Assembly: GCA_903840165.1 (NCBI GenBank)
Contig: CAIMEY010000089.1
Coordinates: 20,313 to 84,312 of the forward strand
Direction: 5' to 3'
Length of the DNA stretch: 64,000 bases
Origin: an uncultured Myxococcales bacterium
GTDB lineage: Bacteria; Myxococcota_A; UBA9042
Shown: positions 14,053-64,000 of the stretch, piece after piece
Layout: each line of letters begins with the position of its first letter
Position numbering within the stretch: position 1 is the first letter of the stretch
The notes under the pieces: model-generated
Seen by the model: only the letters and a program-made list of their open reading frames with translations
Databases searched by the model: none
What the model was told of the DNA's origin: nothing
Translations under genes and position numbers: made by a program

Positions 14053-16740
<2,688 letters not shown>

Positions 16741-18411: not shown

Positions 18412-18440
18412 ATTGATACTCCAGGAAAAATCGGCGGCGC

Positions 18441-19901: not shown

Positions 19902-20099
19902 CGCCGATTGCTTGCACCCTTGGCGGTCCGTGGCTGATCAGCCAACGTCCACGCCGTGTCGCTTGCCGGCCAAGGTCCCACCTGGCCCGCAGGTCCGGGG
20001 CGGCGAGCGCTGGTCGCTACTGCAGGATCCCTTTGAAAATACACCGTTTGCTTGCATTCATCCGCAGCAACGGCTGGGCACAGTTCTCCCCGGGGACCG

Positions 20100-37751: not shown

Positions 37752-37788
37752 TGTACACCAAAGGTCTATCCCCTTGTTTTCTTAGGGG
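37752..37788 (+). repeat. Copy 3 (degenerate) of the repeat; its hairpin overlaps the stop codon of the Cys-rich gene
   Basis: TGTACACCAAAGGTCTATCCCCTTGTTTTCTTAGGGG. Hairpin CCCCT/AGGGG (37770-37788) at the equivalent offset. Confidence 0.55.
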
Positions 37789-40700: not shown

Positions 40701-40940
40701 AGCAAACACCGCATCGGACGATTGTGCTTCTGAAACAAGGGCATCGGTGGACGCAGGCCCAGCATCGGCAGCCACCGTCGGCGCATCGCCCAGCGTCACC
40801 AGGGCATCGGGCGAACAGCCCCAAAGCAGCGCGGGAGCGAGGACAAACGTCACAAAAGCACGGGCAAATTGCGGCCATCGCCTCCTGCGATTAGGACAGG
40901 TCTCCCCGGCACCGATTGAATTGTGCGCCGCACTAGCCAT
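37782..40940 (-). CDS. Large secreted or lipid-anchored protein with ~20 Myxococcus-type cysteine-rich repeats and a C-terminal jelly-roll-like domain
   Basis: 1052 aa. It has an LLWGCSP lipobox-like N-terminus and an acidic linker. About twenty D-x-N-x-C-T-x-D-x-C / C-x-D-G-x-x-C-T-x-G-D-x-C units follow. The tail ends with CGNNLDDNGNGKVDCADPAC. Confidence 0.85.
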   Translation of the reverse strand: MASAAHNSIGAGETCPNRRRRWPQFARAFVTFVLAPALLWGCSPDALVTLGDAPTVAADAGPASTDALVSEAQSSDAVFADFAGPDQELATQPDDVDTLVATDSADALGQDLEDKDEMDEQAEPDAQADGDAADATKADGEADGGEDCQNQAQCPVAKPCWQSICAQGQCQQVAKADGSPCEDGDACSSDDACVQGQCLGTIKDCTDANPCTEDSCASNLGCFHSNNAAPCNDNNACTVGDACSGGSCQAAAGLLDCDDGNECTSDTCLPVGGCIHQPTLGPCGLGQLCAAPGQCSQGACIQGNSTSCDDANPCTSDACNPSTGICQFVPTVGPCQDGKSCTIGDICANGVCKAGPAKVCADANPCSQDSCDEATGACQFFAVTGPCEDGSKCTLGDSCSQGVCLPGAVTTCDDGNPCTTDACVPASGCQYLPNQNKCLLDKVCELGQCQAGQCQGSGVAGCDDNNPCTQDWCVPGQGCVTSLLPDGSGCGDGDACSDNSTCNKGSCVAGTKTDCSDDNPCTDDGCSPQTGCQWVANTASCEDGSLCTTGDHCKSGKCLPGTAKDCSDANPCTDDVCSAKAGCSHKNNGSACDDYNACSSGDHCSGGACQGAVNAACNDGNPCTEDSCDSTTGLCVAKAQGGTCDDGNACTSGDSCVGGSCGAGSPKNCEDGNGCTVDSCEGKSGLCQHVPQSANVPCDDGNACTSGDHCTAGNCGGSAANGGCDDGNGCTTDACDAVTGLCTHVAKIGPCDDANPCTLGDTCDAKGSCNGGSQSPCDDGNPCTVDNCQVKSGACTHAPAPEGSACDDGLACTLSSACQGGLCTPTQEECTWYSEGFACDAGVKDWSVTAPAGYKVLWAVDQTPVTPDADKHGCTMNYNNGLNYCDQQVGIYCLLPPVLVAKSPTIDLTAKVAMPHLAFATYYALDGPLPGGTGFGTVDQDLPLVVLRDVDTNAVLDQFTLSKSTSACSGPCQSLWRSIDLDVPKVAGHRFRMEFSLQAPTNQGNQGKGWFIDDVAVTLQFGPEICGNNLDDNGNGKVDCADPACVGKGGCP

Positions 40941-47571: not shown

Positions 47572-49059
47572 ATGAACGGCCGGAAGAGAGCGCAACGTTT
47601 CCGATTGACAGACGCGACTTTACAGCACAATTCCTGCGGAGCTCCCGTGACGATTCAGGCCCTTGAGCAGCAATTCACCGACCTTCGCGTTCAATTCCGC
47701 AGCCGCCGCCCTCTGCCCGATCAGGGTCCGGTCGTGCTCTGGATGCAGCGGGCGCAACGGGCCTACGACAACCCAGCCATGGACCTCGCGATTTCGGTGG
47801 CCAACCAACTCAATTCTCCCCTGGCGGTATTCTTCGCGCCCCGCCCCGACTATCCCGATGCCCAGCTGCGCCACTTCACTTTCCTGGCCCAAGGAATTCC
47901 AGAGCTTGCCCGGGACGTCACGGCCCGCGGTGCCACGTTCATTCTCCGTTCACCGCCGCACACTTCCCTGACGCAATTCTGCACGGAAGTCGGTGCGCGC
48001 TTGGTGATCGGCGATGAGAATGCCATGGATTTTGCAGAGGATTGGCGGCGACGGGCGGCACTACAGCTGCGGGTCTCCCTGTGGACGGTGGCTGCAGATC
48101 TCATCGTGCCGCCGCGCGCCTTGCCGGCCCAGGAGTTCTGGGCCGCCCGGAGCTTGAGGCCGAAAATCGCAGCCTTACTGCCGATCTACCTTGGGCTGGA
48201 GCACTCCCAGCCTCCCGAGCGGGTGCTGCATTCGTGGCCCGACCTGCCACCGCCTTCCGAGGATCCTCAGGATATTTCAGGCCTTCTCAGGAGATTGGGC
48301 CCGATCGCCTGCCAAGCGGGCCCTGTGGCCTGGCAAGGGGGCCGAGGAGCCGGCCTGGAGCGACTCCAATCCTGGATTGACAAAGGGCTTTCGCGTTACA
48401 CGATCAGCCGCGATGAGCCTTCGCAGGACGGAACCAGTGCCCTATCGCCCTGGCTGCACTTTGGGCAGTTGGGGCCCGCCGAAGTGGCTCGGGCTGTCGA
48501 GCGGAGCCAGGCCCCAGAGGACGCCAAGGCCGCGTATTTGGAACAGTTAATTGTTCGTCGCGAGCTGGCCTGGCACTTTGTCGCCCGCAATCCCGAATTC
48601 CGCACACTGGCGGGCTGCGAGCCGTGGGCGCGCAAGACCTTGGCCGAACACGCGCTCGATCACCGTCCATTCTCCTATACATTTGAGCAGTTGGAGAGTG
48701 CTCAAACCCACGATCCCGCCTGGAATGCAGCGCAGCGACAAATGGTCCAAACCGGCTGGATGCACAACCGAATGCGCATGTACTGGGCCAAGCAGCTGCT
48801 CTTGTGGACGCCCGACCCGCAGACGGCGATGAAATTTGCACAGCGTTTGAATGACAAGTGGCTGCTCGACGGGCGCGATCCCAATGGATACACGGGAATT
48901 GCTTGGTCGATCGGCGGCAAACACGACCGACCGTGGCCACCGGCCAAGCCCGTTTGGGGCTGGATTCGGCCTATGGCGCTGAGCGGCCTCAAGAAGAAGA
49001 CGAATCTTGACGCCTATTTGGCACAGCATCCTCCACTCACGGCCTTCAGCCTGACCTAG
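47572..49059 (+). CDS. phr: Deoxyribodipyrimidine photolyase, class II-like
   Basis: GWMHNRMRMYWAKQLLLW and LDGRDPNGYTGIAWSIGGKHDRPW are class II CPD-photolyase signatures. The N-terminal alpha/beta domain carries VLWMQRAQRAYDNPA. Confidence 0.85.
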   Translation: MNGRKRAQRFRLTDATLQHNSCGAPVTIQALEQQFTDLRVQFRSRRPLPDQGPVVLWMQRAQRAYDNPAMDLAISVANQLNSPLAVFFAPRPDYPDAQLRHFTFLAQGIPELARDVTARGATFILRSPPHTSLTQFCTEVGARLVIGDENAMDFAEDWRRRAALQLRVSLWTVAADLIVPPRALPAQEFWAARSLRPKIAALLPIYLGLEHSQPPERVLHSWPDLPPPSEDPQDISGLLRRLGPIACQAGPVAWQGGRGAGLERLQSWIDKGLSRYTISRDEPSQDGTSALSPWLHFGQLGPAEVARAVERSQAPEDAKAAYLEQLIVRRELAWHFVARNPEFRTLAGCEPWARKTLAEHALDHRPFSYTFEQLESAQTHDPAWNAAQRQMVQTGWMHNRMRMYWAKQLLLWTPDPQTAMKFAQRLNDKWLLDGRDPNGYTGIAWSIGGKHDRPWPPAKPVWGWIRPMALSGLKKKTNLDAYLAQHPPLTAFSLT

Positions 49060-50084: not shown

Positions 50085-51173
50085 GTGAATAGCAACCAGA
50101 TGCGCAGTCAACGCCTTGATAATGACCAAGATCCGACCGGAGACGACGTGCCAGAGGTTCATGCGACCTTGGGCATCGGCGCGCTGTCGAAGGCGACGGG
50201 GGTGCCTGTCGAGACCCTGCGAACCTGGGAAAGGCGCTACGGATTCCCGCGGGCTGAGCGCGAGGCCTCTGGGCAGCGCACCTACGACCTGCCAACGCGG
50301 CAACGCCTTCTTCTGATTAAGGAAATCCTACAGCAGGGTCTGAGGCCAGCTCGGGTCCTGCCCCTGCCCATGGCCGAGTTGATGCGCTTGGTTCAGCCGG
50401 GTCCGCCTCGCCCGAATGCAGACAGTCAAGAGCCTGATAATAAGACGTTAAGCGAGCAAGGTCGTCCTCTGCCGAACCGTGGTGAGGGCGCGGAAACGCG
50501 CGAGGACCGGCGTAGCGATCCCGTACGTGGGTTGAACGCCACGCCGACGCGCACCCAACTGATTATCGACTACTGGCTGGAACTGGTCCGCCGCTTTGAC
50601 AGCGCTGCCCTGGCCGATGAACTGACGCGGGCATGGAACCACTCGGGAACCGTCGCTTTTCTCGATGACGTCGCCAGCCCGTTCATGACCGCCGTCGGTG
50701 CGGCTTGGGCTAATGGTGAACTGTCCGAGGTTCATGAACACTTTGCCTCCGAGCACTTGCGCGCCAAGCTGATCGATGTCACCGGGCCGACCAATGCCGA
50801 GGCCCCGACGGTGGTTTGCGCCACGCTGCCCGGCGAGCAACACAGCCTTGGGCTGCAAATGGCGGCTTTAACCCTGCGGATCGCGGGGTTGCGGGTCGTG
50901 TACTTGGGCACCGATCTGCCGATTCGGGGTCTGGCGCGGACGATTGTCGAACTGCAGCGAATTGGCGAGGTTCGGGCGATGCTCGTCAGCGTCTCTCTGG
51001 CCGTCGAGGCGACCCACTCGCGCAACCAGTTGTCCCAACTGCGAAGTCTGGTGCCGGAGTCGGTGTTGGTGCTGGCAGGCGGCGGCGGTCTGCCCTCTGG
51101 CGTTGCCGGGATTGTCGAGCCGGGGAGCCTGCGCAACCTACTGGATTGGGCGCGCGGACAAGTGCCTGGCTAG
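50085..51173 (+). CDS. MerR-family regulator with a C-terminal cobalamin-binding domain (CarH/LitR-type photoreceptor regulator)
   Basis: MerR HTH: IGALSKATGVPVETLRTWERRYGFP. Wx9EH motif: WANGELSEVHEH (50706-50741). B12-binding ExHxxG: GEQHSLG (50835-50852), followed by a Rossmann-like segment. Confidence 0.85.
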   Translation: MNSNQMRSQRLDNDQDPTGDDVPEVHATLGIGALSKATGVPVETLRTWERRYGFPRAEREASGQRTYDLPTRQRLLLIKEILQQGLRPARVLPLPMAELMRLVQPGPPRPNADSQEPDNKTLSEQGRPLPNRGEGAETREDRRSDPVRGLNATPTRTQLIIDYWLELVRRFDSAALADELTRAWNHSGTVAFLDDVASPFMTAVGAAWANGELSEVHEHFASEHLRAKLIDVTGPTNAEAPTVVCATLPGEQHSLGLQMAALTLRIAGLRVVYLGTDLPIRGLARTIVELQRIGEVRAMLVSVSLAVEATHSRNQLSQLRSLVPESVLVLAGGGGLPSGVAGIVEPGSLRNLLDWARGQVPG

Positions 51174-51262: not shown

Positions 51263-52417
51263 CTATAGCCCGCTCGGTAACACCTCGGCAGGCACCTCGT
51301 GGCGCAGCACCGTGCCATCGGGCAAGGTCCCGCCGTGGGTGCGTAAATCCCCGTAAATCCAAGCTGAATCGCCCTTCTTGAAGTGGTAATCCAGTGCTCC
51401 GACCACAATCTTCCACACGCCGTACCAGTCCAGGGCGTCCAAATGGCTCAGCGGCGTCGCCATGTCCGCGATACCACCGTTCTTTCCTTCGATGGCCCCC
51501 GGGAACATGTGGTCCGCAGTCAAGGTCGGCGCCGTCGGTGGATTGAGGGCGTCAGCCGGGCCGCTACCATGTAGCAAGATGATTTGCTTGCCTTTTGCCG
51601 GCGATAAGTCAAAGAGCGCTTGGGTATTCGGCTTGGTCGGATCGGCGTACGGCGCGATGGTATCCGCCTGCCCGGCCAAGTAGGTGACCCAAAAGGTATT
51701 GCCGGGCCATTGCTTTACAAATTCGCGGGCATCCACATAGTCACCGATAGGAGGTGGCGTGTTTTCGACCGCCATGGGCAGCAGCAGGTCCGGGTCGGCG
51801 TACGCATTGGCTGTGTCGAGCGTTGTCGCCTTTGCCCCTGCGATCACAATGACTTTGGCCCCCATGGAATGCCCCGCATAGGCAATGCGCGTTGGGTCGG
51901 CCTTGGGCTGCAGCGCCAGGGCCGCTTGCAGGGCGCTCAGGAAATCATCGGCCATTCGCGCATGGTCACCGTCGAGGATATCCTGCTCAACACGCACAAA
52001 AACAACTACATAGCCCTTGCGCGCCACATGTTCGAGCATGGGGCGGTACACATGCGCCAGTTGCACCTGCCCCGGCGCCACGGTCCCTTCATACAGCTGT
52101 TTTCCATGGACAAAAGCCAGCACTGGGTAGGGCCCCGGCCCATCCGGCGTGTAGATGAGGCAGGGCCGCTGCGCCGCACCGAGAGCCACCTCTTGCACGG
52201 TCACCGTTTCAGCGTAGGTGGAACTGCCGGGCTGATTGCCCGTGGGCTGTTGGGCAATCGGGCAATTGCCACATGGATCTAAGGCTTTGCCGTCACCGTT
52301 CACGATATCGACCGCGTCCGTTGCGTCCCCAGACCCTTGAGTCGACGGCGGTGATTGGCAGGCAATGAGCGCACCGAACATCGCACCCAGCATCGCAATT
52401 AGCAGGTACCTCAGCAT
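51263..52417 (-). CDS. Secreted alpha/beta-hydrolase lipoprotein
   Basis: Lipobox FGALIACQ, nucleophile elbow AYAGHSMGAKV (GxSxG), and an upstream oxyanion-like AFVHGK. Confidence 0.65.
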   Translation of the reverse strand: MLRYLLIAMLGAMFGALIACQSPPSTQGSGDATDAVDIVNGDGKALDPCGNCPIAQQPTGNQPGSSTYAETVTVQEVALGAAQRPCLIYTPDGPGPYPVLAFVHGKQLYEGTVAPGQVQLAHVYRPMLEHVARKGYVVVFVRVEQDILDGDHARMADDFLSALQAALALQPKADPTRIAYAGHSMGAKVIVIAGAKATTLDTANAYADPDLLLPMAVENTPPPIGDYVDAREFVKQWPGNTFWVTYLAGQADTIAPYADPTKPNTQALFDLSPAKGKQIILLHGSGPADALNPPTAPTLTADHMFPGAIEGKNGGIADMATPLSHLDALDWYGVWKIVVGALDYHFKKGDSAWIYGDLRTHGGTLPDGTVLRHEVPAEVLPSGL

Positions 52418-52702: not shown

Positions 52703-53437
52703 TTGAACAGGACTTCAATGCGACCGCAGCTGCCCTTGTCGGCCAAACACCTTCTGGTTTTGAGCATTTTCGCGGCGTTCGCGCCCGCGCTGCCGAGGGT
52801 GGCTAGGGCCGAGTCCCTGGTCTGCGACCGCTTGATCGATGATTTTTCCACAAATACGCCCGGTTCTTGGCCCAAAGGCTGGCGAGAGCGCGACGGCGGC
52901 ACGGCCGAAGAAGCCCTCAAGCACAGCCGCTACGCCGTGGAACAAGCCTCTGGTTTCAAAGCATTACGCGGCACCTATGGCGACAAATCGGTGACCATCG
53001 GCCGCAGCATCGCCAACTGGGATCTCAAGCAATACCCGATCCTACAGTGGCGCTGGCAGGCCGTTCGCCTCCCCAAAGGCGGCGACGAGACCCGCAGCGG
53101 GCACAATGATACCGCGGCATCGGTCTACGTCTTTTGGAAAGCGTCCTGGCCCTTTCGCGTGCAAAGTCTGAAGTTTACGTGGAGTTCCACAAAACCCGTG
53201 GGCACCCATGTCGACCGCGGGATGGGCCACTACCATGTTCGCGTGCTCGAAAGTGGCGCGGGCCATGTCGGGCAGTGGCAGACCGTGCAAGCCGACGTGC
53301 GCACCGAGGCAATCCTGCGTTTTGGCGAAGATATCGGCATTCCGTACGGCATTGCCATCCTCACCGATGGGGATGACACCGAGAGCCCGTCCGAGGCCCT
53401 CTATGCCGAGTTCCGGCTGTGTCGAAAAAACCCTTGA
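52703..53437 (+). CDS. DUF3047 domain protein (secreted)
   Basis: Has a signal peptide. LQWRWQAVRLPKGGDETRSGHNDTAASVYVFW matches the DUF3047 core as I remember it. Confidence 0.65.
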   Translation: MNRTSMRPQLPLSAKHLLVLSIFAAFAPALPRVARAESLVCDRLIDDFSTNTPGSWPKGWRERDGGTAEEALKHSRYAVEQASGFKALRGTYGDKSVTIGRSIANWDLKQYPILQWRWQAVRLPKGGDETRSGHNDTAASVYVFWKASWPFRVQSLKFTWSSTKPVGTHVDRGMGHYHVRVLESGAGHVGQWQTVQADVRTEAILRFGEDIGIPYGIAILTDGDDTESPSEALYAEFRLCRKNP

Positions 53438-53449
53438 TTTTATAGCAAA

Positions 53450-54886
53450 TTAGGGCACAGCGGGCGTGGGCAGGGACCAATTGCCCCCTGGGTCGATATC
53501 GCAACCCACGGCAAATAGGACTTCAGCCCGAGCCACCAGCACATCACGCAACCCTTCGTAATGCGTGCGCTTGGCCTGAACAAACGCCACCAAACCATCC
53601 ATGACGTCGCGCGCCTCGCCCGTGCCCGTCGTATAGGCCGCCGCAGCGAAGGTCAGCCACCGTTGGGCCGCCTTGACCTGCGCGGTGGTGCCTTGGGCCA
53701 GTTCGATTTGCCGATTGAAATCCGCTAACGATTTACGCACTTGCAGCGGAATTCCCGACGCAGCAAACCGCGCCTGGGCCTGCACTTCCTGCCCCATCGC
53801 CTTCGCCGCCGCCGAGCGAGCCATGGCCGCCATCGGGTCGAAATTCCACAAGAATCCAACGGCAATTCCACCCGCAATGATGTTGTACGGGTCGTAGTGA
53901 TACGGATTGGGGTCATCGTCGCGATTGGGCGTCCAACCGAGCTCTAGCTGACCACCCACGGCCAAAACCGGAGCATTGGCGCGCAGTTCCGCCTTGGCCA
54001 GAGCCTCCGTCGCCCGCAGACCATGGTCGATCTGCTGCCATTCCGGCCTTTGCTGCGCCGCCCACTGCAGCAGGGCCTCGCGCGGTGGCAGCGTGGCGAT
54101 GTCGTCACTGTTGGGCAACCGAGCCTGGGCAAGAGTTAGGGTCATTTCATCAGGCATATCGAGTGCTTGCTTGAGCGCCTGCCGCGCCAGGTCTGCGCCG
54201 TCTTGGGCCAACCGATGAAGGCGAGCCACTTCCAACTGCCCGTAACTCAAGCGATCCAAGTCGACTTGGGTCACCTTGCCAGTGCCTTCCGCGTAGAGTT
54301 CCTGAGCGCGGTTGAGGGCATCGCCAACGGTGGTGCGCGCGAACTCAAGGGTGGGCACAAGGCTGCGTGCGTACAAGTGAATTGCGTACAGCCGGCGAAT
54401 TTCCAAGGCCAAAATATTGCGGGCTTCGCGCACACGCGCCGATTCGACAAGGGCCCGCTGTTTGGCTGCAGTTTCGCCCGCTTCCACGCGGCCAAAGCTA
54501 TAGATCGGCCAGGCCAAGGTTGCCTGCAGACGCGCATAGGGCCCCCAGGCCTTGGGCGCAAAATCATAAGAAACACGCGGCTCTGCGCCTGTTCCCTTGA
54601 CCGCAAAGGTCGGAGCTACAAAGCCGAGGGCATTGAGCTTGGGCCAGTAGGTCGATTCCACTTCCGCCAAGCGGGCTTCCCACTGCCGCACCCGCGCCTG
54701 GGCCTCAGCAACCTTGGGCGAATGCGACAAAGCCCATCGCACACAACCTTCGGCATCTAATGGTGTTGTTGGGCCCCCAACTCCGTCAGCGTGCGCGGTG
54801 CTGGCCGACCCGTACGTGCCCGCTAGCGTCAGCAAGACCGCGATCAGGCGACCGAGCGCAGGCCTTCGATCTGCTGTCACGATCAC
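53450..54886 (-). CDS. TolC-family outer-membrane efflux protein
   Basis: 478 aa with a signal peptide and two repeated long helical / beta-barrel halves of OEP-family composition. It has a GTG start and overlaps the upstream gene by 4 nt. Confidence 0.7.
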   Translation of the reverse strand: MIVTADRRPALGRLIAVLLTLAGTYGSASTAHADGVGGPTTPLDAEGCVRWALSHSPKVAEAQARVRQWEARLAEVESTYWPKLNALGFVAPTFAVKGTGAEPRVSYDFAPKAWGPYARLQATLAWPIYSFGRVEAGETAAKQRALVESARVREARNILALEIRRLYAIHLYARSLVPTLEFARTTVGDALNRAQELYAEGTGKVTQVDLDRLSYGQLEVARLHRLAQDGADLARQALKQALDMPDEMTLTLAQARLPNSDDIATLPPREALLQWAAQQRPEWQQIDHGLRATEALAKAELRANAPVLAVGGQLELGWTPNRDDDPNPYHYDPYNIIAGGIAVGFLWNFDPMAAMARSAAAKAMGQEVQAQARFAASGIPLQVRKSLADFNRQIELAQGTTAQVKAAQRWLTFAAAAYTTGTGEARDVMDGLVAFVQAKRTHYEGLRDVLVARAEVLFAVGCDIDPGGNWSLPTPAVP

Positions 54887-55542
54887 GGCGCCGCCTCGCC
54901 GCGCTTCTTGCGTTCATCGTCAAAGCGCGATTGAAGCTTCTTGAGCAGCCCGGCCACCCCATCCTTGGCGAGAATCTTCCCGAATTGATTACGGTAATCG
55001 GCGACAAGCGACGCGCCGTCAAAGCGCACATCGGCCACCAGCCACTGCCCCTTGGACTGCTGCCAGTGGAAGGTCACGTCGGTTTCCAGGTCCTCCGCTT
55101 CCTTGCGGGCGTGCACGATCACATCGGCCTGATCTGCCTGAGCCGGCCCCGCTTTGGCCGTCCAAGTCGCGCCACGCAGGGCATCGGGATAGGCGACGAG
55201 GCGAATCAACTCCCAAAAAAGCTGAACATACTTCGCCATTTGCGGAGCAGCGAACTGGGCCTTGTACGGTGCAATGGCCTCGGCGGTGAGGGCGTCACGA
55301 TCGAAGAAGGCATCGAGCTGCTTGTAGACATCGCGATTGGCCTTTTTCACCGCATCGCTCCGGGTTTGGCCCGGTTGAGCGTGCTGCACTGACTCGAACG
55401 TCCGCATCAGAGCCTGGGTGCGGACCAGGGGCGCATCGGCGGCGCTCAGGGGACGGACCAGAGAAATCATCAACAATATCAAGAGGATTTGCAGTCGCAT
55501 GGGGCTTTCCTTGGGCCAGTTGCCGGCGTGGTTGTACGCCAT
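54883..55542 (-). CDS. MlaC/Ttg2D-like periplasmic lipid-binding protein
   Basis: Has a signal peptide. The C-terminal WLVADVRFDGASLVADYRNQFGKILAKDGVAGLLKKLQ fits the MlaC family consensus. Confidence 0.68.
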   Translation of the reverse strand: MAYNHAGNWPKESPMRLQILLILLMISLVRPLSAADAPLVRTQALMRTFESVQHAQPGQTRSDAVKKANRDVYKQLDAFFDRDALTAEAIAPYKAQFAAPQMAKYVQLFWELIRLVAYPDALRGATWTAKAGPAQADQADVIVHARKEAEDLETDVTFHWQQSKGQWLVADVRFDGASLVADYRNQFGKILAKDGVAGLLKKLQSRFDDERKKRGEAAP

Positions 55543-55723: not shown

Positions 55724-55739
55724 TTGAACGCGTGTTCAA
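55724..55739. promoter_or_regulatory. Inverted repeat TTGAAC-GCGT-GTTCAA in the divergent mlaC-like/tetR intergenic region; candidate TetR operator
   Basis: Six-bp perfect arms at 55724-55729 and 55734-55739, about 180 nt from each divergent start codon. Confidence 0.35.
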
Positions 55740-55917: not shown

Positions 55918-56559
55918 TTGACTCGAGTCGCCGCCACTTCTGACGATCGCCGCAGCCGGGAAATCGGTCGGACCCAGGAGGACATCCTGCACGCCGCGGC
56001 CAAGGTGTACGCATCGCACGGCTTTGAAGGTACGACGATTCGGCGCATCGCGGAAGAAGCTGGGTATACGCCTGCAGCGTTGTACTCGTACTTTGAAGGG
56101 AAAGAGCAAATCTTTCGCGGTCTTGTCCAACGCATGCAGCAGTCTCTTCTGGACACATTTGCAGAGCGCCAACCCACCGGCGTGGACTTTGCCCACCGCC
56201 TAGAGCTTTTGCTGCTGCGGCAGATGGAATCGGTCCAGAATCAGTGGCAGGCTTGCGTCGTATTCTTCCTGCTGCGGTCGCCGGGAACGGATGCTGATTC
56301 GGGCAGCCTAGCCGATAAGCACGCGGGATTTCCGGCGTTTCATCAGGCCATGAGCCAGTGGTTGCTTGACGCAGGTGCCAAAGAAGCCATTGCCGTCCCA
56401 GCGGACGAAGCCGCGGACATCTTGGTCGGTCTGACCTACGCGATGTTTCGCCGGTGGCTACGCAATCGAGGCCCTGAGCCTTTGTCCGATGTGGCCCCAA
56501 GGATTGTAAATTTATTTCTTCATGGCGCGGCGGGTGCCGGTCGCCAAGTGCCTAGCTAG
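55918..56559 (+). CDS. TetR/AcrR-family transcriptional regulator
   Basis: N-terminal HTH: TQEDILHAAAKVYASHGFEGTTIRRIAEEAGYTPAALYSYFEGKEQIF. Confidence 0.85.
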   Translation: MTRVAATSDDRRSREIGRTQEDILHAAAKVYASHGFEGTTIRRIAEEAGYTPAALYSYFEGKEQIFRGLVQRMQQSLLDTFAERQPTGVDFAHRLELLLLRQMESVQNQWQACVVFFLLRSPGTDADSGSLADKHAGFPAFHQAMSQWLLDAGAKEAIAVPADEAADILVGLTYAMFRRWLRNRGPEPLSDVAPRIVNLFLHGAAGAGRQVPS

Positions 56560-56684: not shown

Positions 56685-57803
56685 ATGAAAACGATTCGGA
56701 TTGCCATCGCTGGCCTGGGCAACTGCGCGAGTTCGCTTATCCAGGGCATTACCTACTACCGCGACCGCGACTTGGATGAGACTGCAGGCCTGATGCACTC
56801 GGAGATCGGCGGCTACAAGCCAAGTGATTTGGAAGTCGTGGCGGCATTCGACATCGACCGCCGCAAGGTGGGCCAACCTGTTGAAATTGCAATGTTCGAG
56901 CAGCCAAACTGTACCACGGTGTTCCAAAAGGAGATCCCGCCCACTGGCGTGATCGTCCAGATGGGACCGATCCTCGACGGTATTGCCGTACACATGGCGA
57001 AGTACCCGGATCGCCAGGCTTTCCGCGCTTCGGACGCGACGCCCGTCGATGTCACCGCGGTGCTCAAGGAGCGCAAGGTCGACGTGCTGGTCTGCTACAT
57101 GCCGGTAGGCAGCGAGCAGGCCGTGCGCTACTACGCTGAGGCAGCCCTGGATTCTGGTTGCGGATTCGTCAATTGCGTTCCCGTGTTTATCGCTTCGGAC
57201 GCCATCTTCGCGGCCAAGTTTGCGGCCCGCGGCCTGCCCATCGTCGGCGACGACATCAAGAGTCAGTTCGGCGCGACCATCTTGCACCGCATGCTGGTTC
57301 GCTTGATGGGCGATCGCGGCGTGCAAGTGCAGCGCACCTACCAGCTCAACACCGGTGGCAATACGGACTTCCTCAACATGCTTGAGCGCACCCGCTTGGA
57401 AAGCAAGAAGATTTCCAAGACCGAGTCGGTGCAGTCCCAGCTCGATGTGCGCCTGGACGATGACAACATCCACGTCGGCCCGTCGGACTACGTTCCATGG
57501 CAGAAAGACAACAAGCTCTGCTTCTTGCGCGTGGAATGGGACGGCTTTGGTGGCGTGCCAATGAACCTCGAAGCTCGCCTGAGCGTTGAGGATTCGCCGA
57601 ATTCGGCAGGCGTTGCTGTCGACGCGATTCGCTGCTGCAAGGTGGCTTTGGAACGCGGCATCGGTGGTCCGTTGCACGCGGTGTCGTCCTACACGATGAA
57701 GCACCCGCCGATTCAGATGCGCGACTCGGAAGCCCGTGACCAACTCAACGCGTTCATTGCGGAATCCTCTCCTCGCTCAACGGTAGCTTGGCAGGCTGCC
57801 TAA
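56685..57803 (+). CDS. ino1: myo-Inositol-1-phosphate synthase (bacterial/archaeal type)
   Basis: IRIAIAGLGNCASSLIQGITYY resembles the mycobacterial Ino1 N-terminus. Also GDDIKSQFGAT and the SYxMKHPP C-terminus. Confidence 0.9.
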   Translation: MKTIRIAIAGLGNCASSLIQGITYYRDRDLDETAGLMHSEIGGYKPSDLEVVAAFDIDRRKVGQPVEIAMFEQPNCTTVFQKEIPPTGVIVQMGPILDGIAVHMAKYPDRQAFRASDATPVDVTAVLKERKVDVLVCYMPVGSEQAVRYYAEAALDSGCGFVNCVPVFIASDAIFAAKFAARGLPIVGDDIKSQFGATILHRMLVRLMGDRGVQVQRTYQLNTGGNTDFLNMLERTRLESKKISKTESVQSQLDVRLDDDNIHVGPSDYVPWQKDNKLCFLRVEWDGFGGVPMNLEARLSVEDSPNSAGVAVDAIRCCKVALERGIGGPLHAVSSYTMKHPPIQMRDSEARDQLNAFIAESSPRSTVAWQAA

Positions 57804-57807
57804 GCCA

Positions 57808-60354
57808 ATGACCGATCGCGTGTGGCAGGGATGGGCGCGGATTTCCCACCAACATGCGGGAAAACTGCTGGGGCTCGGGGTGGCGGTGCTATTGGCATCG
57901 CTGCCCTGGGCGGCCCAGCTCTACGGCAACTTACACACAGATATCCGTGAGTTGCTGCCCCAAGGCGCCCCTGCTGCTGTCGCGCTCGATGAGCTAGAAC
58001 ACCGAATCGACGGGCTCTCTTCCCTGACCCTGGTGGTTCAAGCCGACGAGCCGAAACAAGGCCAAGCATTTGTCGACGCTTTAGCCAAACAAATTCGGCA
58101 GTTACCGGCCGGAATGCTCTCGCGCGTCGATGCCGACCTCAAACAGGAACAAGCCTTTTCGCACGCCCACGGCGCGCTGTACGCGGACACCTCAGATCTA
58201 CAGACAATTGCCGATGGCTTGCAGAAGCGCAAGGACGAGGCTCGCAAAAAAGCCAATCCTTTCCATGTTGAGATCGACGACGATCCGCCGCCGGTGGCGC
58301 CTACGGCGACAGAGCCCAAGGCCGATGACCTCGATGCCGCCGTCGAACGTCTGCGGCAAAAAGCCAAGCAAGCCGATACCTTCCCGAGTGGCTACTTCGC
58401 CAGCGAGGACGGCAAGACCCTGATCGTGCAGGTCAAGCCGTTGGGCGCTGCCGTGGACCTCGATTCGGCCAAGAAGTTGTTCACGGCCGTGGACGGCATT
58501 GTCCAGGGACTTCACCCAACTTTCCCAAAGATTCATGTTGGTTATAGTGGCGAAGTCCGTGGTGTGATCGAGGCCCAGCAGCATCTGGTCGCGGACATGC
58601 TGACCTCGTCGGTGCTCGTCTTGGTCGCTGTCTCGGCGGTACTTCTTTTGTATTTCGGGCACTTGCACAGCTTGCCGCAGTTGATCCTTCCTCTGTTCAT
58701 CGGCGCGACAGCGACCTTCGCGGTTTCGCGCTGGGTCATCGAATACCTCAATCCGAACACGGCCTTTCTCGGCAGCATCATTGTCGGTAATGGCATCAAC
58801 GCGGGCATCATCTTGCTGGGCCGCTACGACGAGCAGCGTCGCCAAGGGCAAGCCGCCGAGCAAGCTTGGCAGCAAGCGCTGTCCTCGACTTGGCTGGCAA
58901 CCTTGACCGCGAGTGGCGCCGCGGCGCTGAGCTACGGTGCCTTGGGAACCGTGCAATTTCGGGGCTTTAATCAGTTTGGCTTCATCGGCTTTCTCGGCAT
59001 GATCACGTGCTGGCTAACTACCTACGCGTGGCTGCCGGCCGTGACTACAGTGCTGGAGCGGTGGCGACCGAATAACTACGGCAAGCTCACACAACCATTG
59101 AAGTTGACTTCCTTTTTTGCCAATCTGGTCACGCGTCATGCGCCTTGGGCCACCGCCTTTGCAGCTCTACTGGCCGCCCTTGCGGTGGTCGGTGCGCTGC
59201 ATTTTTCCCAGGCACCTATTGAACATAACTTGCAAAACCTAGGTTCGCGCCAGGGCCAAATCGACGGGGAAGCCTTCTGGGGCCGCCGTGTTGACGCCGT
59301 CATGCGCAGTTACCAGACGCCGACGGTGATTTTGACCGATAGCCCCGCTCAGGCCGAGCAAGCTGCGGCAGCGTTGAGGACGGCGAAAAAGGCCGAAGGC
59401 AGCCACGGCACCATCGATACGGTTCGGACATTGCAAGACTTTCTCCCGGCCGACCAGCAGGCGCGTCTGCCCTTGGTGGGCCGCATTCTCGCACTGCTGC
59501 AGCCGGCCAATGGCACGCTGGGCCAAGTGGATGCCAAGCTCTTGCAGCGTGTTCGCCCCGATCTACGCGAAACAGTAAAGCAATTGGCCAGGGACACCCA
59601 GCTGACGCCGGTCACCCCCGCGGATTTGCCACTGCGCTGGGGAGCCCCTTTCCATGAGAAAACAGGCCATTGTCTAGGCTGCATCGCCTTGGTCTATCCG
59701 ACGCTGACCACCGATGCCTCCAATGGCCAGGGCCAGGTGCAACATGCGCAATTACTTCGGGAAACTGTCAGTAGCTCGGTGCCCGGTGCCCGCATTGCCG
59801 GGACCATCGTGCTGACTTCAGACATCAATCGCGCGATCACGGTCGACGGACGCGGCGCGACGCTGCTGAGCCTTTTGGCCGTAGCGCTGATTACCTTTAT
59901 TATTCTGAGGTCTTTGAGTGCTGCGGCGTGGGTGGTGACATCCCTGGCCGTGGGCGTGCTGTGGATGTTCGGTGCCTTGGGCTGGCTCGGCATCAAGTTG
60001 AATTTCGTCAATTTCGCTGTAATGCCAATCACTTTTGGCATTGGCATCGACTACGCCGTCAACTACGTGCAGCGCTATCGTCAGGTCCAAGATGCGGCAG
60101 CGGCCCTGCGCTCGATCGGTGGCGCTGTAGCGCTTTGTTCTGCAACGACAATCATCGGCTATGCGACGCTGATAACGGCCGACAACCGAGCTGTGCAGTC
60201 CTTCGGCATCAGCGCCGTTCTTGGTGAAATCACTTGTCTTTCTGCCGCGCTTCTCTTGACACCCGCGCTTTTGGCCTGGCGCGACCAACGGGTGCGGCGC
60301 AGGGCCAACCGCTTGGCCAACGACGCTTTGGCTCAACCACCTTCAACTCTCTGA
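57808..60354 (+). CDS. MMPL/RND-superfamily (HpnN-like) membrane transporter, probable lipid exporter
   Basis: 848 aa with two TM bundles and two periplasmic loops, as in an RND duplication. GNGINAGIILLGRY and FGIGIDYAVNYVQRY are MMPL-type motifs. Confidence 0.75.
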   Translation: MTDRVWQGWARISHQHAGKLLGLGVAVLLASLPWAAQLYGNLHTDIRELLPQGAPAAVALDELEHRIDGLSSLTLVVQADEPKQGQAFVDALAKQIRQLPAGMLSRVDADLKQEQAFSHAHGALYADTSDLQTIADGLQKRKDEARKKANPFHVEIDDDPPPVAPTATEPKADDLDAAVERLRQKAKQADTFPSGYFASEDGKTLIVQVKPLGAAVDLDSAKKLFTAVDGIVQGLHPTFPKIHVGYSGEVRGVIEAQQHLVADMLTSSVLVLVAVSAVLLLYFGHLHSLPQLILPLFIGATATFAVSRWVIEYLNPNTAFLGSIIVGNGINAGIILLGRYDEQRRQGQAAEQAWQQALSSTWLATLTASGAAALSYGALGTVQFRGFNQFGFIGFLGMITCWLTTYAWLPAVTTVLERWRPNNYGKLTQPLKLTSFFANLVTRHAPWATAFAALLAALAVVGALHFSQAPIEHNLQNLGSRQGQIDGEAFWGRRVDAVMRSYQTPTVILTDSPAQAEQAAAALRTAKKAEGSHGTIDTVRTLQDFLPADQQARLPLVGRILALLQPANGTLGQVDAKLLQRVRPDLRETVKQLARDTQLTPVTPADLPLRWGAPFHEKTGHCLGCIALVYPTLTTDASNGQGQVQHAQLLRETVSSSVPGARIAGTIVLTSDINRAITVDGRGATLLSLLAVALITFIILRSLSAAAWVVTSLAVGVLWMFGALGWLGIKLNFVNFAVMPITFGIGIDYAVNYVQRYRQVQDAAAALRSIGGAVALCSATTIIGYATLITADNRAVQSFGISAVLGEITCLSAALLLTPALLAWRDQRVRRRANRLANDALAQPPSTL

Positions 60355-60390
60355 CACCAAAGTGCAATCCTGCACAAGGCGACTAGAATC

Positions 60391-61488
60391 ATGGCAAACT
60401 CGAAGCTGCGTGGCGCCCTCATTGGCTATGGCTGGATTGCCCGTCACGGCCACGTGCCGCATTACCAAGCGACGGACGAGGTGACCCTGGTGGCTGTGGC
60501 CGACCCGGTGCTCGCGTGCCGGACCCAAGCTGCCCATGATTTCCCGGGGATCCGCTGCTACAACGACGCAGCGAGTCTGTTGGCGGCCGAGAAGGACCTA
60601 GACTTTGTCGACATTTGCACGCCGCCCTGCTGGCACGCCGAATACGCAATTGCAGCTTTGGAACAAGGGCTTCACGTCCTGTGCGAAAAGCCCCTGGCGA
60701 CTTCGACGGCCCAGGCGACGGCCATGCTGCAAGCAGCTGAAAAAGCAGGAAAAGTACTCCTTCCTTGCCACACGTACAAGCACGCCCCGGTGGTCCGCGC
60801 TGTGCGTAAGTTGTTGGATGAAGACCGGATTGGCAAGGTTCACTTGGTTACCTTGCAGACCTTTCGCAACACGCACGCCAAAGGCATCCCCGACTGGAAC
60901 ACCGATTGGCGCCGCGAGTTCCGCTATTCGGGCGGTGGCATCGCCATGGATCACGGTAGCCACACGTTTTACTTGGCTTTTGACTGGCTTGGCGCCTTGC
61001 CGACCAGCGTGACGGCGCAGATGACAGCCCAAGGCAACTGGGACACCGAAGACGCCTACAGCTGCACCGCTACTTTCCCCAATGGCGGCCTTGCGATGGC
61101 TCAGTTGACCTGGACTGCCGGCATCCGCCGCGTGTACTACACGATTCACGGCGAAAGGGGCGCAATTACAGTGCAAGACGACGACGTGGAGCTCTGCATC
61201 AAGGGCGAGGCCTTGGCCGGCGGCAACGGCACAGTGACGTGGAGCTATGAAAAGATCGCTTGCCCTTCCGATTGGATGGATGCCAGTCATTGCGGGTGGT
61301 TTGGCTCCTTGTTTGCCAAGTTCCAGGCGACGATCGCCTCCGGTCAGGCCGTCTCTTCGGAGCTAGAGCAAGCCTGGACCTGCGTGCATCTCATTGAATC
61401 TTCGTACAAATCCGCGCAGGCATCCAGCCTCGCTCAGCCCTTGGCCCCCGTCGCACAGGTGCGCGGCGCCGTGGCAGGAGGTCGCTAA
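60391..61488 (+). CDS. Gfo/Idh/MocA-family NAD(P)-dependent oxidoreductase
   Basis: N-terminal Rossmann segment LRGALIGYGWIARHGHVPHY, plus LCEKPLA, the conserved EKP motif. Confidence 0.8.
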   Translation: MANSKLRGALIGYGWIARHGHVPHYQATDEVTLVAVADPVLACRTQAAHDFPGIRCYNDAASLLAAEKDLDFVDICTPPCWHAEYAIAALEQGLHVLCEKPLATSTAQATAMLQAAEKAGKVLLPCHTYKHAPVVRAVRKLLDEDRIGKVHLVTLQTFRNTHAKGIPDWNTDWRREFRYSGGGIAMDHGSHTFYLAFDWLGALPTSVTAQMTAQGNWDTEDAYSCTATFPNGGLAMAQLTWTAGIRRVYYTIHGERGAITVQDDDVELCIKGEALAGGNGTVTWSYEKIACPSDWMDASHCGWFGSLFAKFQATIASGQAVSSELEQAWTCVHLIESSYKSAQASSLAQPLAPVAQVRGAVAGGR

Positions 61489-62252
61489 TGGCTGACTGGA
61501 TCTATCCGCTGCTGCCGTGGGTGCCCATTGCCCTGCTAATCGTGGTGTGGATCCCGATGAAAGCTGCGGGAAAGACGCCGCATTTTCAGCGGACGGACGA
61601 GCTCGGCGGCAGCGCCTTGGTCGGCAAGAATGCCAAAGAAATGATGTATTGGGCGATGCAGCCCGCTGGCCGTATCTTGCTCACGCTGCGCATCACGGCC
61701 AACGGTGTCACCTGGAGCTCGGGAATGTTCGGCCTAGGCGCCGGCATCGCATTAGCCAATGGTCGCATGGGGTTAGGCTCGCTGCTTGCCTTTCTTTCCT
61801 TCCTGGCCGATGGTCTCGACGGCATGGTCGCCCGGCTCAACGGCACCGGCTCCTTGGCGGGCGAAGTGCTCGATGCGGCCATGGATCGCTACGTCGAGTT
61901 CTTCTGGTTCATCGGCGTTGCTGTATGGTATCGCGGAGATACGCCCCGGCTTGTCCTGACCTTGGCCGCCTTGGCCGGCGCGATGATGGTCAGCTACACC
62001 TCGGCTAAGGCGGAATCGATGCAGACCGAAGTGCCCAGCGGGGCCATGCGGCGCATCGAGCGGGCGGTCGTGGTCAGCTGCGGCGGCTCCTTCACCGCTT
62101 TTGCCAAACCTTTTGAAGGCTTCTGGCAGGACCATGGCATCGCCGCCGATTGGCCGATGCTGTTGGCGCTTGGCCTTATCGCAGTTCTGGGTAATTACAG
62201 CACTTTTACTCGATCCCGGGCCTTGATGCGGGCAGTCGCCCATCGCAAATAG
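61488..62252 (+). CDS. CDP-alcohol phosphatidyltransferase family protein (candidate phosphatidylinositol-phosphate synthase-like)
   Basis: The complete motif D-G-x2-D-G-x2-A-R-x8-G-x3-D-x3-D is present in ADGLDGMVARLNGTGSLAGEVLDAAMD. Membrane protein. The start overlaps the previous stop (TAATG). Confidence 0.85.
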   Translation: MADWIYPLLPWVPIALLIVVWIPMKAAGKTPHFQRTDELGGSALVGKNAKEMMYWAMQPAGRILLTLRITANGVTWSSGMFGLGAGIALANGRMGLGSLLAFLSFLADGLDGMVARLNGTGSLAGEVLDAAMDRYVEFFWFIGVAVWYRGDTPRLVLTLAALAGAMMVSYTSAKAESMQTEVPSGAMRRIERAVVVSCGGSFTAFAKPFEGFWQDHGIAADWPMLLALGLIAVLGNYSTFTRSRALMRAVAHRK

Positions 62253-62277
62253 CGCGGGTCTTGGTCTCCATCCCTAG

Positions 62278-62697
62278 GTGACCGCAGCGAGTTTCGTGAA
62301 GAATTTTCCGTTCTTACAACTGCTCCGCCATCAGCTCGGTGCCATTGTCACCACGGCGGTGGACTTCTCGGTCATGGCCGTGGTCGTATCGGGGCTGGGG
62401 CAATCGCCTGTCCTAGGCACCGTTTGCGGAGCAAGTTGCGGTGCCGTCACCAATTTCTACCTGGGCCGCCGCTGGATCTTTGGCGCCGAAAAGCAGGGCA
62501 AGCGTGGGCAGTTGGCCCGCTACCTCCTTGTTTCTGCTACAAGTCTGGGCTTCAATGCCGGTGGTGAGTGGTTGCTCGCCGTACGCTTAGGGCTTGGCTA
62601 CGTGATCGCACGCGCCGCAGTGGCGGTTGCTGTCAGTTTGCTTTGGAATTACCCCATGCAGCGGCATTTTGTCTTTGCCGTACCGAGGATCCCGTGA
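62278..62697 (+). CDS. GtrA-family membrane protein
   Basis: 139 aa with four TM helices. It has the GtrA-like N-terminus FLRHQLGAIVTTAVDF and the C-terminal NYPMQRHFVF. Confidence 0.7.
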   Translation: MTAASFVKNFPFLQLLRHQLGAIVTTAVDFSVMAVVVSGLGQSPVLGTVCGASCGAVTNFYLGRRWIFGAEKQGKRGQLARYLLVSATSLGFNAGGEWLLAVRLGLGYVIARAAVAVAVSLLWNYPMQRHFVFAVPRIP

Positions 62698-64000
62698 CGA
62701 CATTGGAAGCCAAATCTCAAGACTTGACAAACATCAACCCAAGCCAACCCAAGAATCAGCAAGTGGTTTTGCGCACGTCTTTGCCAGGCCCCTTAAGCCA
62801 GGCGCTGCGTGACCGGGAGGATGCCCACCTCGCCCCGGGTGCCCAAGCCTACGCGTTGCAGGCGGGCGTTGTCGTCGATCACGCTGAAAACGTGGCGATT
62901 ACCGATGTCGATGGCAATACGCTCTTCGATTTCGTCGGTGGCATCGGTGTTTGCGCCATTGGCCACAGCCATCCGCGCTGGGTCAAGGCGCTGCAGAATC
63001 AGACCGCCAAGGCCGCCATGGGTTCGTTCACCAGCACGGCAAGGGTCGAATTACTCGAACGAATCGCCGCGCAGCCTCCGGCCCCAGGCGTCCATCGCAC
63101 CCAGCTCTACTCCGGCGGGGCCGAAGCCGTGGAGAGTGCCCTGCGTTTGGCCCGCGCCCACACAGGACGTCAGGATTTCATGGCGTTTTGGGGCGCTTTT
63201 CATGGCAAGACGGTCGGCGCCTTGTCGCTGATGGGCTCGCCCTGGTCGCGCGGACTCGGGCCGCTCATGTCCGGCGTTCACCACAGCCCTTATGCCGATT
63301 GCTATCGCTGCCCGCTTGGAACTACCTATCCCGGCTGCGGATTGGCCTGTGCCGAGCAGTTGCGCCAACGCCTCAAGTCGGGGCCCGAAGTCGCCGCGGT
63401 GATCGCCGAGCCCATCCAAGGGACCGCTGGCAACATCGCGCCGCCCAATGACTTTATCCCTGCCGTGGCGCAGATTGCCCACGAGAGCGGTGCGCTCTTC
63501 ATCGCCGACGAAATGATCACGGGCTTTGGTCGCACCGGCAAACGGTGGGGCGTGCAACACAGCGGCGCACGGCCAGATATCGTCACGATTGGCAAGGCTT
63601 TTGGCGGTGGATTCCCCATCAGTGGCCTCATCACCCGCGACGACATTTGCCAGGCCAAGCCGTGGAGCGCCCCTTCGGGTTCTTCGTCGAGTTACGGCGG
63701 AAATCCGCTCGCTTGCGCGGCAGCCAACAGCGCCTTGGAAATTATTGAGGACGAGCATTTGGCGCAAAATGCCGCCGAAGTCGGGGCGATTCTGCTGGAG
63801 GAACTGCAAGACCTGGCCGAAGCCTTCCCCTTTGTCGGCCTGGTGCAGGGCAAGGGCCTGATGTTACGCATTGAATTGGTGCAGGACCGCCAGACCAAGG
63901 AGCCGCTGAGTCGCGCTGTGTGTATGCGCCTGTTCCACGCCCTGGTGCGTCGCGGCCTGATCACGATGGCGACTTCACCGCACCTGCGCTTGCAGCCGCC
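62694..64000 (+). CDS. Class-III (fold type I) PLP-dependent aminotransferase; 3' end runs off the window
   Basis: Absent from the ORF track because there is no stop in the window. The GTG at 62694 overlaps the gtrA stop (GTGA). Translation gives DVDGNTLFDFVGGIGVCAIGHSHP, SGGAEAVESALRLAR, ADEMITGFGRTGKRW and TIGKAFGGGFP, which contains the PLP lysine. Confidence 0.85.
   Translation, partial: MTTLEAKSQDLTNINPSQPKNQQVVLRTSLPGPLSQALRDREDAHLAPGAQAYALQAGVVVDHAENVAITDVDGNTLFDFVGGIGVCAIGHSHPRWVKALQNQTAKAAMGSFTSTARVELLERIAAQPPAPGVHRTQLYSGGAEAVESALRLARAHTGRQDFMAFWGAFHGKTVGALSLMGSPWSRGLGPLMSGVHHSPYADCYRCPLGTTYPGCGLACAEQLRQRLKSGPEVAAVIAEPIQGTAGNIAPPNDFIPAVAQIAHESGALFIADEMITGFGRTGKRWGVQHSGARPDIVTIGKAFGGGFPISGLITRDDICQAKPWSAPSGSSSSYGGNPLACAAANSALEIIEDEHLAQNAAEVGAILLEELQDLAEAFPFVGLVQGKGLMLRIELVQDRQTKEPLSRAVCMRLFHALVRRGLITMATSPHLRLQP

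Follow-up and report, generated by a model that had tools for sequence, protein, structure and literature searches.

What product would an operon yield that joins a known route to phosphatidylinositol (PI) with a dehydrogenase, an aminotransferase and an exporter? Such an operon lies at the end of a 64,000-nt stretch of DNA from an uncultured Myxococcales bacterium (assembly GCA_903840165.1, contig CAIMEY010000089.1), which we call the window and whose coordinates are used throughout. The gene cluster is real and widely conserved, and it is probably one operon. We favor the reading, at a rough probability of 0.55, that the locus is a dedicated system for the biosynthesis and export of a tailored, amino-modified inositol lipid; that it is an inositol-lipid cluster of some kind appears highly probable. 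Its core is known, being a bacterial inositol-lipid cluster of the phosphatidylinositol phosphate (PIP) route, and the extension by a dehydrogenase, an aminotransferase and an MMPL exporter is new. Families were assigned with Pfam and with curated NCBIfam/TIGRFAM models that carry equivalog cut-offs, and each of the six open reading frames (ORFs), which run co-directionally on the + strand from 56685 to the window end, had a significant Pfam match to the family proposed for it in an earlier note on this DNA:

56685..57803, + strand, inositol-phosphate synthase (MIPS, ino1), 372 amino acids (aa); Pfam Inos-1-P_synth (PF01658) 5e-35
57808..60354, + strand, MMPL/RND-type exporter, 848 aa; Pfam MMPL 5e-33, in two stretches
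60391..61488, + strand, Gfo/Idh/MocA oxidoreductase (dehydrogenase; hereafter Gfo), 365 aa; GFO_IDH_MocA and C-terminal domains 7e-25
61488..62252, + strand, CDP-alcohol phosphatidyltransferase, 254 aa; CDP-OH_P_transf 2e-10
62278..62697, + strand, GtrA-family small membrane protein, 139 aa; GtrA_DPMS_TM 5e-20
62694..64000 (open at the window end), + strand, class-III pyridoxal phosphate (PLP) aminotransferase (AT3), 435 of 466 aa in the window; Aminotran_3 8.5e-95

The intergenic spacings, when recomputed, were 4, 36, –1, 25 and –4 nt, as the earlier note had given them. The Gfo stop codon overlaps the transferase start codon (ATGA), and an alternative GtrA start at 62296 (133 aa), chosen by the gene callers on the parent contig, gives a gap of 43 nt instead of 25. 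The downstream genes were read from the gene table of a 181-kb contig encoding an identical transferase, and there the operon does run on past the window, as had been supposed. The full-length aminotransferase (466 aa) is followed, with a 4-nt overlap, by a PgpA-family gene (165 aa) and, after a 70-nt gap, by a gene for a hexapeptide-repeat (Hexapep) protein of 321 aa, beyond which lies a convergent bipA. The Hexapep protein is a putative hexapeptide transferase and would be encoded by the last gene of the operon; the gene is not conserved in the related locus L002 (related loci are denoted L### and protein homologues P####). The GC content of the operon was uniform with that of its flanks, and terminator-like sites inside it occurred at chance level (10 against 9.3 ± 3.4 expected), as did promoter-like matches. 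The shared strand, the short or overlapping junctions and the chance-level terminator matches are compatible with a single transcript.

Four of these genes have counterparts in a system that has been characterised genetically, the inositol-lipid cluster of Bacteroides thetaiotaomicron (Heaver et al. 2022, PMC9246714). In that cluster BT_1526 is the MIPS, BT_1523 the PIP synthase (PIPS), BT_1525 a PgpA-like PIP phosphatase, BT_1522 an AUR1-like phosphoinositol-dihydroceramide synthase and BT_1521 an MprF-TM-like neighbour, and knockout of BT_1524, a GtrA-motif membrane protein, gave no lipid phenotype (PMC9246714). The window operon shares with BT_1523-BT_1526 the MIPS, the PIPS-type transferase, the GtrA-like protein, which is the counterpart of BT_1524, and the PgpA-like protein. 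The earlier note had taken MIPS and the transferase to form the bacterial PIP route, and the downstream PgpA, also found in L002, L004, L006, L090 and L172, supplies the expected PIP phosphatase. The MprF-TM-like (LPG_synthase_TM, flippase-like) and AUR1-like (PAP2_3) genes are found in relatives of the window; a PAP2_3 synthase gene was found neither in the window nor in the operon on the parent contig, and the PAP2_3 genes of the relatives match solely the BT_1522-type model NF052609. Conversely, the Bacteroides cluster is without a dehydrogenase, an aminotransferase and an MMPL protein, its BT_1523 model has a cut-off of 350 bits against the 74 bits reached by the window transferase, and the window MIPS is of a different, short type. 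The claim that no described pathway has this composition thus does not hold for the MIPS/PIPS/GtrA/PgpA core, and it stands for the Gfo, AT3 and MMPL additions, of which no description alongside inositol-lipid genes was found in the literature searched.

The short MIPS is of the actinobacterial/archaeal type: TIGR03450 aligned with it from end to end (1-355 of 355) at 457 bits against a cut-off of 638. Nearly all relatives of the operon carry instead a long, eukaryote-like MIPS of the NAD_binding_5 type, which gave no tblastn match (E <= 1e-3) to the window ino1. That two non-orthologous types of MIPS were recruited to one cluster argues that inositol phosphate is a required input. The short Ino1, together with a PIPS-like transferase that has an inositol-phosphate pocket, is also what the operon shares with the mycobacterial PI pathway (Ino1, PgsA1), and MMPL-family lipid exporters are typical of the mycobacterial envelope. 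The window differs from that pathway in its sub-cut-off scores, in its diderm context, with an outer-membrane efflux protein (OEP) and an MlaC-like protein encoded nearby, in having no phosphatidylinositol mannoside (PIM) mannosyltransferases and in the added oxidoreductase and aminotransferase.

The transferase motif, D108-G-L-D111-G112-M-V-A115-R116-x8-G125-x3-D129-x3-D133, is the complete canonical Dx2DGx2ARx8Gx3Dx3D and was invariant in 32 homologues; the earlier note had rightly called it complete, and had spelled its start, DGx2DG, with one residue too many (the canonical form is Dx2DG). Compared with the curated PIP and AIP synthase models (NF045883, NF040950, NF052561), the protein scored 89.8 bits for AIP synthase (cut-off 180), 86.5 for PIP synthase (cut-off 170) and 73.8 for the BT_1523 type (cut-off 350). 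Its best solved structures were mycobacterial PIPS, then Renibacterium PIPS fusion constructs, DIPPS, and AF2299, which is the fusion partner in those constructs. Judged by these profiles, it is a separate clade within the PIPS/AIPS group. The inositol-phosphate pocket residues of Mycobacterium tuberculosis PgsA1 (PMC6506517) were transferred to the window protein through a HMMER alignment. Those kept are R94 (R134 in the window protein), S132 (S169), Y133 (Y170), R152 (R189) and R155 (R192); R137 is changed from Arg to Lys (K174), and K135 is not conserved (S172). The conserved pocket positions were invariant or nearly so in the 32 homologues. Retention of this pocket suggests that the acceptor most likely carries a phosphate, as inositol-3-phosphate does, and with the nearest curated families and structures all being PIP or AIP synthases or DIPPS, the transferase does appear to be of the PIP-synthase type that had been assigned to it. 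In the protein database its family gave 49 matches, 4 of which are fused to GtrA (P0017, P0021, P0036, P0039). Glu126 (GEVLD, against GAVLD in mycobacterial PIPS) was considered as a marker of amine binding and dropped, since it is present with or without Gfo and AT3 nearby and the scan pattern itself demanded GEVLD.

Do the added genes travel with this core? Relatives of the transferase occurred in at least 415 species-level genomes in a genome scan that used the transferase alignment with family motif patterns and is biased to close relatives. The best 80 of these were nearly all metagenome-assembled genomes (MAGs) of Bdellovibrionota, Myxococcota and Binatia, together with one Gemmatimonas and one Acidobacteria; the closest among them, a 'Myxococcales' MAG, has the same gene order, with 66% identity in the transferase and 81% in the dehydrogenase. 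Among 35 species-level loci in which the transferase is flanked by 6 kb or more on each side, Gfo was present in 32, AT3 in 27, PAP2_3 in 22, MMPL in 20, MIPS in 18, GtrA in 16 and PgpA in 11, where the last two counts are probably underestimates, these short proteins having been sought by tblastn. Gfo lay directly upstream of the transferase in 40/75 loci, and AT3 within 1 kb downstream of it in 45/63. The dehydrogenase has relatives in 585 or more metagenome loci; scanning metagenomes with the window sequence itself gave no match, and the alignment-based scan gave no relative above ~59% identity. When 21 metagenome loci were anchored on Gfo, 15 held the transferase, 16 AT3 and 10 MMPL. Gene order varies, with MMPL first in L004 and last in L006, the cluster divided into divergent halves in L088 and L096, and order or strand shuffled also in L087, L090, L091 and L172. 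The start/stop overlap of Gfo and the transferase is kept in the window, L002, L006, L090, L091 and L172. Across phyla, then, the operon genes keep together through changes of order and of strand, which was the co-occurrence that the earlier note had asked about.

One MAG (bin-0880) carries paralogous transferases (L007/L008), one of them in an MMPL-Gfo-transferase-GtrA-AT3 arrangement and the other in MIPS-transferase-PAP2_3, where the 2.2 kb upstream of it contain no dehydrogenase gene; these may be separate tailored and plain inositol-lipid branches. In L091, from a Minicystis sp. MAG, two LPG_synthase_TM genes, a FemAB-family gene (TIGR03019, 226 bits) and an MMPL gene stand on the opposite strand directly past the cluster (14698-20461), which hints at further acylation or flipping of the head group in that lineage.

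The dehydrogenase and the aminotransferase also occur together in a different setting. More distant Gfo/AT3 pairs (35-37% identity) belong in L165/L166 to another gene set, in the order HAD, NTP-transferase, an unknown protein, AT3, Gfo, a different CDP-alcohol transferase with a complete motif, and a CopD-like protein, and the same distinct transferase clade follows Gfo in L167-L169. In L154 (and L159) an orthologue-level Gfo overlaps MIPS; next come the gene for a 304-aa homologue of the unknown protein, a CDP-alcohol transferase gene and an MprF-TM-like gene, with HAD, NTP-transferase and AT3 alongside. An 'alternative' inositol-lipid cluster of NTP-transferase, CDP-alcohol transferase and HAD, with a BT_1521-like neighbour, has been proposed for B. 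vulgatus and Prevotella (PMC9246714). The same gene set, with MIPS, hosts the distant Gfo/AT3 relatives in L154, L159, L165 and L166; the published version is without the dehydrogenase and the aminotransferase, and the window uses the PIPS/PgpA route rather than the cytidylyltransferase route. The pair is therefore joined to both bacterial strategies of inositol attachment, and we see in this the best evidence at hand that the inositol head group is what it modifies. The tie of the two enzymes to inositol-lipid genes, drawn earlier from the window operon, gains from the fact that a second, unrelated architecture again combines them with MIPS and a CDP-alcohol transferase.

The unknown protein of this second architecture (~290-300 aa, no Pfam match) is found at 12414-13328 in L154, in L159, at 1737-2597 in L165 and at 2911-3747 in L166. 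The L165/L166 proteins are 28% identical to that of L154. Of two copies checked, that of L165 had no family or structure match, and that of L154 a single weak one, to inositol 1,3,4-trisphosphate 5/6-kinase 4 (ITPK4, E = 0.005). The protein, ATP-grasp-like, may be a cyclitol or inosamine kinase. A role as an amide-forming ligase that acylates the amine was withdrawn, the weak match of the L154 copy being to ITPK.

How would these parts work together? By homology, MIPS would convert glucose-6-phosphate to inositol-3-phosphate, the PIPS-like transferase would join this to CDP-diacylglycerol to give PIP, and the PgpA-like phosphatase would strip the phosphate. Gfo would oxidise one ring hydroxyl to a ketone, which AT3 would convert to an amine, so that the anionic PI would become a zwitterionic aminodeoxy-inositol ('inosamine') phospholipid. 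That Gfo and AT3 tailor the inositol head group seems to us somewhat better than an even bet, and that the product is specifically an amino-inositol lipid about even. GtrA, with the MprF-flippase-like proteins in relatives, may assist translocation, and in relatives the AUR1-like PAP2_3 protein would pass the head group to ceramide.

The oxidation and amination could take place either on soluble inositol phosphate before lipidation or on the lipid head group afterwards. The earlier timing would agree with the distinct clade of the transferase, the paralogous transferases within one MAG (L007/L008), the frequent adjacency of Gfo and MIPS and the kinase/HAD/cytidylyltransferase logic of the alternative clusters; against it, the same transferase clade occurs without the Gfo/AT3 pair in L017, L020, L065, L068 and L073.

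The enzyme logic has precedents. In aminocyclitol chemistry (streptomycin, spectinomycin, rhizopine), myo-inositol dehydrogenase is followed by an inosose aminotransferase, with the inositol supplied by MIPS. The likeness lies in the use of a Gfo-family dehydrogenase with a PLP aminotransferase; these pathways differ in their DegT/StsC-type aminotransferases and their soluble antibiotic or signal products. In the Arn system, which puts 4-amino-4-deoxy-L-arabinose (L-Ara4N) on lipid A, and in MprF-dependent lysyl-phosphatidylglycerol formation, we see a functional analogy only: an amine that a dehydrogenase and an aminotransferase install on a sugar or polyol ends on an anionic lipid, with a small flippase-type protein, whereas carrier, substrate and enzyme families all differ from those of the window.

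Gfo itself appears to represent a well-defined, uncharacterised and highly conserved subfamily of NAD-dependent oxidoreductases. Its orthologues are ~55% identical across phyla, and E99-K100-P101, with the catalytic Lys, and D187-x3-H191 are invariant among them, features common to the whole Gfo/Idh/MocA family. AT3 has Aminotran_3 as its sole Pfam family, with no DegT_DnrJ_EryC1 fold type, and its nearest relatives are γ-aminobutyrate (GABA) and acetylornithine transaminases. In an alignment of six cluster AT3 enzymes with Escherichia coli GabT, the PLP lysine K268 and R398 were kept, R141 was Lys and E211 Thr in all six, and the six carried a three-residue insertion relative to GabT. The replaced substrate residues and the sub-cut-off scores indicate that AT3 is not a canonical GABA transaminase.

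Several observations weigh against an amino-inositol lipid as the product. Gfo rose above no curated cut-off, reaching 74 bits against 355 for the inositol dehydrogenase IolG (TIGR04380), and AT3 fell below every one, with 284 bits against 506.65 for GabT (TIGR00700). The inosose aminotransferases known to us are of the DegT type and not of class III, a caveat that the earlier note had raised too. No report of an amino-inositol lipid was found in the literature searched. Seven full-flank loci have Gfo, MIPS and the transferase with no AT3 within 10 kb (L014, L022, L027, L034, L044, L046, L078), four Gfo orthologues have only housekeeping genes around them (L124, L125, L148, L149) and three transferase homologues are without any of the partners (L017, L020, L065). 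The bias of the genome scan to close relatives belongs here as well. No cultured carrier was identified, including in a search with the dehydrogenase of a Myxococcaceae-labelled MAG, which gave no named isolate, so there is no published lipidome to match.

Could the two enzymes serve another end within such a cluster? The locus might make ordinary PI, and inositol phosphoceramide in relatives, while Gfo and AT3 use inositol phosphate from the same pool for a soluble aminocyclitol, for instance an inosamine-type solute, signal or building block, that does not end up as a lipid head group. Both enzymes do resemble ordinary soluble cytoplasmic enzymes, the gene that Gfo adjoins or overlaps is often MIPS and not the transferase (as in L154, L087 and numerous loci of Bdellovibrionota), and the alternative clusters, like pathways to soluble aminocyclitols, hold a HAD phosphatase and a protein with weak likeness to ITPK (E = 0.005). 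Yet the tightest linkage of the pair is with the membrane transferase, whose start/stop overlap with Gfo is conserved, the pair still occurs beside a CDP-alcohol transferase in L165-L169, which have no MIPS in the vicinity, and lipid exporter and flippase-like genes travel with it, so that we regard a soluble product as unlikely. It is a little less likely still that Gfo alone tailors the ring, to a keto-inositol or, after re-reduction, to a stereoisomer such as scyllo-inositol, with AT3 employed otherwise. The seven loci without AT3 and the more frequent retention of Gfo (32 against 27 of 35) would suit such a product, and a keto-modified head group was also allowed by the earlier note; the position of AT3 close behind the transferase in most loci (45/63) and its direct pairing with Gfo even in the distant L165-L170 lineage speak for a joint role, and the absent AT3 genes could sit elsewhere in the genome.

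A substrate apart from inositol has also to be considered, either a nucleotide sugar, yielding an amino sugar that decorates PI, or GABA/ornithine-type metabolism, with the linkage reflecting a shared envelope function only. Gfo has sugar and UDP-sugar 3-dehydrogenases among its closest relatives, both by curated model and by structure. It matched levoglucosan, xylose and UDP-GlcNAc dehydrogenase models as weakly as it did IolG, its best solved structures reached ~80 bits, and its sequence matches were equidistant from many family enzymes with differing substrates. The relatives of AT3 point to GABA and acetylornithine, and GtrA proteins elsewhere are known to go with polyprenyl-sugar glycosylation. 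Nucleotide-sugar synthesis genes, however, are absent, no glycosyltransferase is conserved in the cluster (one GT1 family occurs, in 6 closely related loci only), and the conserved genes by themselves provide for no polyol other than inositol. GABA, which had been named beforehand as a substrate that would overturn the proposal, fits poorly with an AT3 that is not a GabT orthologue, with R141 and E211 replaced and all GABA-aminotransferase equivalogs below cut-off. We therefore think such a substrate improbable. That the genes are chance neighbours, or share inherited synteny without forming a functional unit, is very improbable: most relatives do belong to a small number of related phyla, and close relatives are favored by the scan patterns, but the gene set recurs in differing orders and orientations, with fusions, with a non-orthologous MIPS and, in the second architecture, on a different transferase clade.

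How would the amino-modified inositol lipid that we favor reach the outer membrane? The best NCBIfam matches of the MMPL protein, HpnN-like (203 bits) and BstA (144 bits), are RND lipid exporters and its best curated relatives; the scores lie far under the cut-offs (203 against 751.85 for TIGR03480, 104.6 against 1100 for NF052374 and 143.9 against 1400 for BstA). HpnN and BstA both transfer a specialised lipid out of the inner membrane and into the outer one, and neither hopanoid nor sterol genes were found in the window. Further candidates lie just upstream of ino1:

52703..53437, + strand, DUF3047 protein with an N-terminal signal-peptide-like stretch, a possible accessory envelope component; Pfam DUF3047 1.6e-26
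53450..54886, – strand, TolC-like outer-membrane efflux protein (OEP), divergent from the operon; Pfam OEP 6.5e-25
54883..55542, – strand, MlaC-like periplasmic lipid-binding protein, with a 4-nt overlap with the OEP gene; Pfam MlaC 1.5e-20
55724..55739, perfect 16-bp palindrome TTGAACGCGTGTTCAA in the divergent mlaC/tetR intergenic region, a candidate TetR operator
55918..56559, + strand, TetR-family regulator, 126 nt upstream of ino1; Pfam TetR_N 2.9e-16

OEP and MlaC homologues stand inside the L096 cluster (6574-8429), between the transferase and the aminotransferase, and in L170 an OEP gene (4121-5509) comes directly after Gfo. The OEP is probably the outer-membrane part of a lipid export route, and these arrangements suggest a three-part route in which the MMPL pump, probably with the MlaC-like carrier and the OEP channel, would bring the lipid out to the outer envelope. 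The DUF3047 gene, 3 kb upstream of the operon, may encode an unrecognised component of the lipid system: its homologues adjoin Gfo in 7 loci, mostly Binatia (L026, L038, L043, L058, L140, L144, L151), and lie directly upstream of it on the same strand in 6/7, the L140 copy being on the opposite strand. The TetR regulator would control the unit. A TetR gene stands at the cluster head, divergent from the MMPL gene, in L004/L005. A shared operator for tetR and ino1 was rejected, the palindrome not being repeated upstream of ino1. The window holds one exact copy of it, and matches with up to two mismatches were not significant (3 against 1.55 expected).

Other features of the window and of relatives were recorded in passing. 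A photolyase-family gene (47572-49059) and, close by, a MerR plus B12-binding (CarH-like) regulator (50085-51173) resemble a typical myxobacterial light-response module, and L091 too has a CarH-like gene beside its cluster. In the interval from the window regulator to the DUF3047 gene is a 384-aa protein with a chlorophyllase-family (alpha/beta-hydrolase) match of 1.5e-10 (51263-52417, – strand). A 1051-aa protein (37782-40940, – strand) has seven Dictyostelium CTDC repeat matches (PF00526, 6.7e-53), unusual in a bacterium. A 795-aa protein (7069-9459, – strand) fuses an enolase-superfamily MR_MLE_C domain with an AMP-binding ligase and may be a fused o-succinylbenzoate (OSB) synthase and OSB-CoA ligase, and several eukaryote-like Ser/Thr kinases are also encoded in the window. 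These kinases, the CarH-like regulator and the CTDC-repeat protein, along with the closest relatives of the operon, suggest a Myxococcota genome as the source. The distant relative L088 (1-9760) has a split cluster that includes a B12-binding radical SAM gene and adjoins a Radical_SAM plus DUF3463 protein, which we take to be HpnH-like, an NAD-dependent epimerase/3-beta-HSD-family protein and DXP synthase.

Among bacteria, inositol lipids are regarded as uncommon, and to our knowledge the characterised bacterial pathways are those of Actinobacteria and Bacteroides only. The distribution seen here suggests an inositol-lipid pathway in many diderm lineages that are uncultured or predatory, and the tailoring module that accompanies it there predicts a lipid head group not yet seen. 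Tentatively, and with somewhat less confidence than we place in the window locus itself, we propose an undescribed class of zwitterionic aminocyclitol phospholipids, joined by aminocyclitol sphingolipids where the AUR1-like gene is present. The class would be widespread, in Myxococcota, Bdellovibrionota and Binatia among others, would draw on both of the routes that bacteria take to inositol lipids and would use a dedicated MMPL-MlaC-OEP route to the outer membrane, a lipid export route that is itself put forward here. The proposal gives a testable role to a large uncharacterised Gfo/Idh/MocA subfamily and to a subfamily of class-III aminotransferases. If it is true, the inositol amine would offset the charge of PI and so affect outer-membrane properties, resistance to cationic peptides and, possibly, the self-protection of predators.

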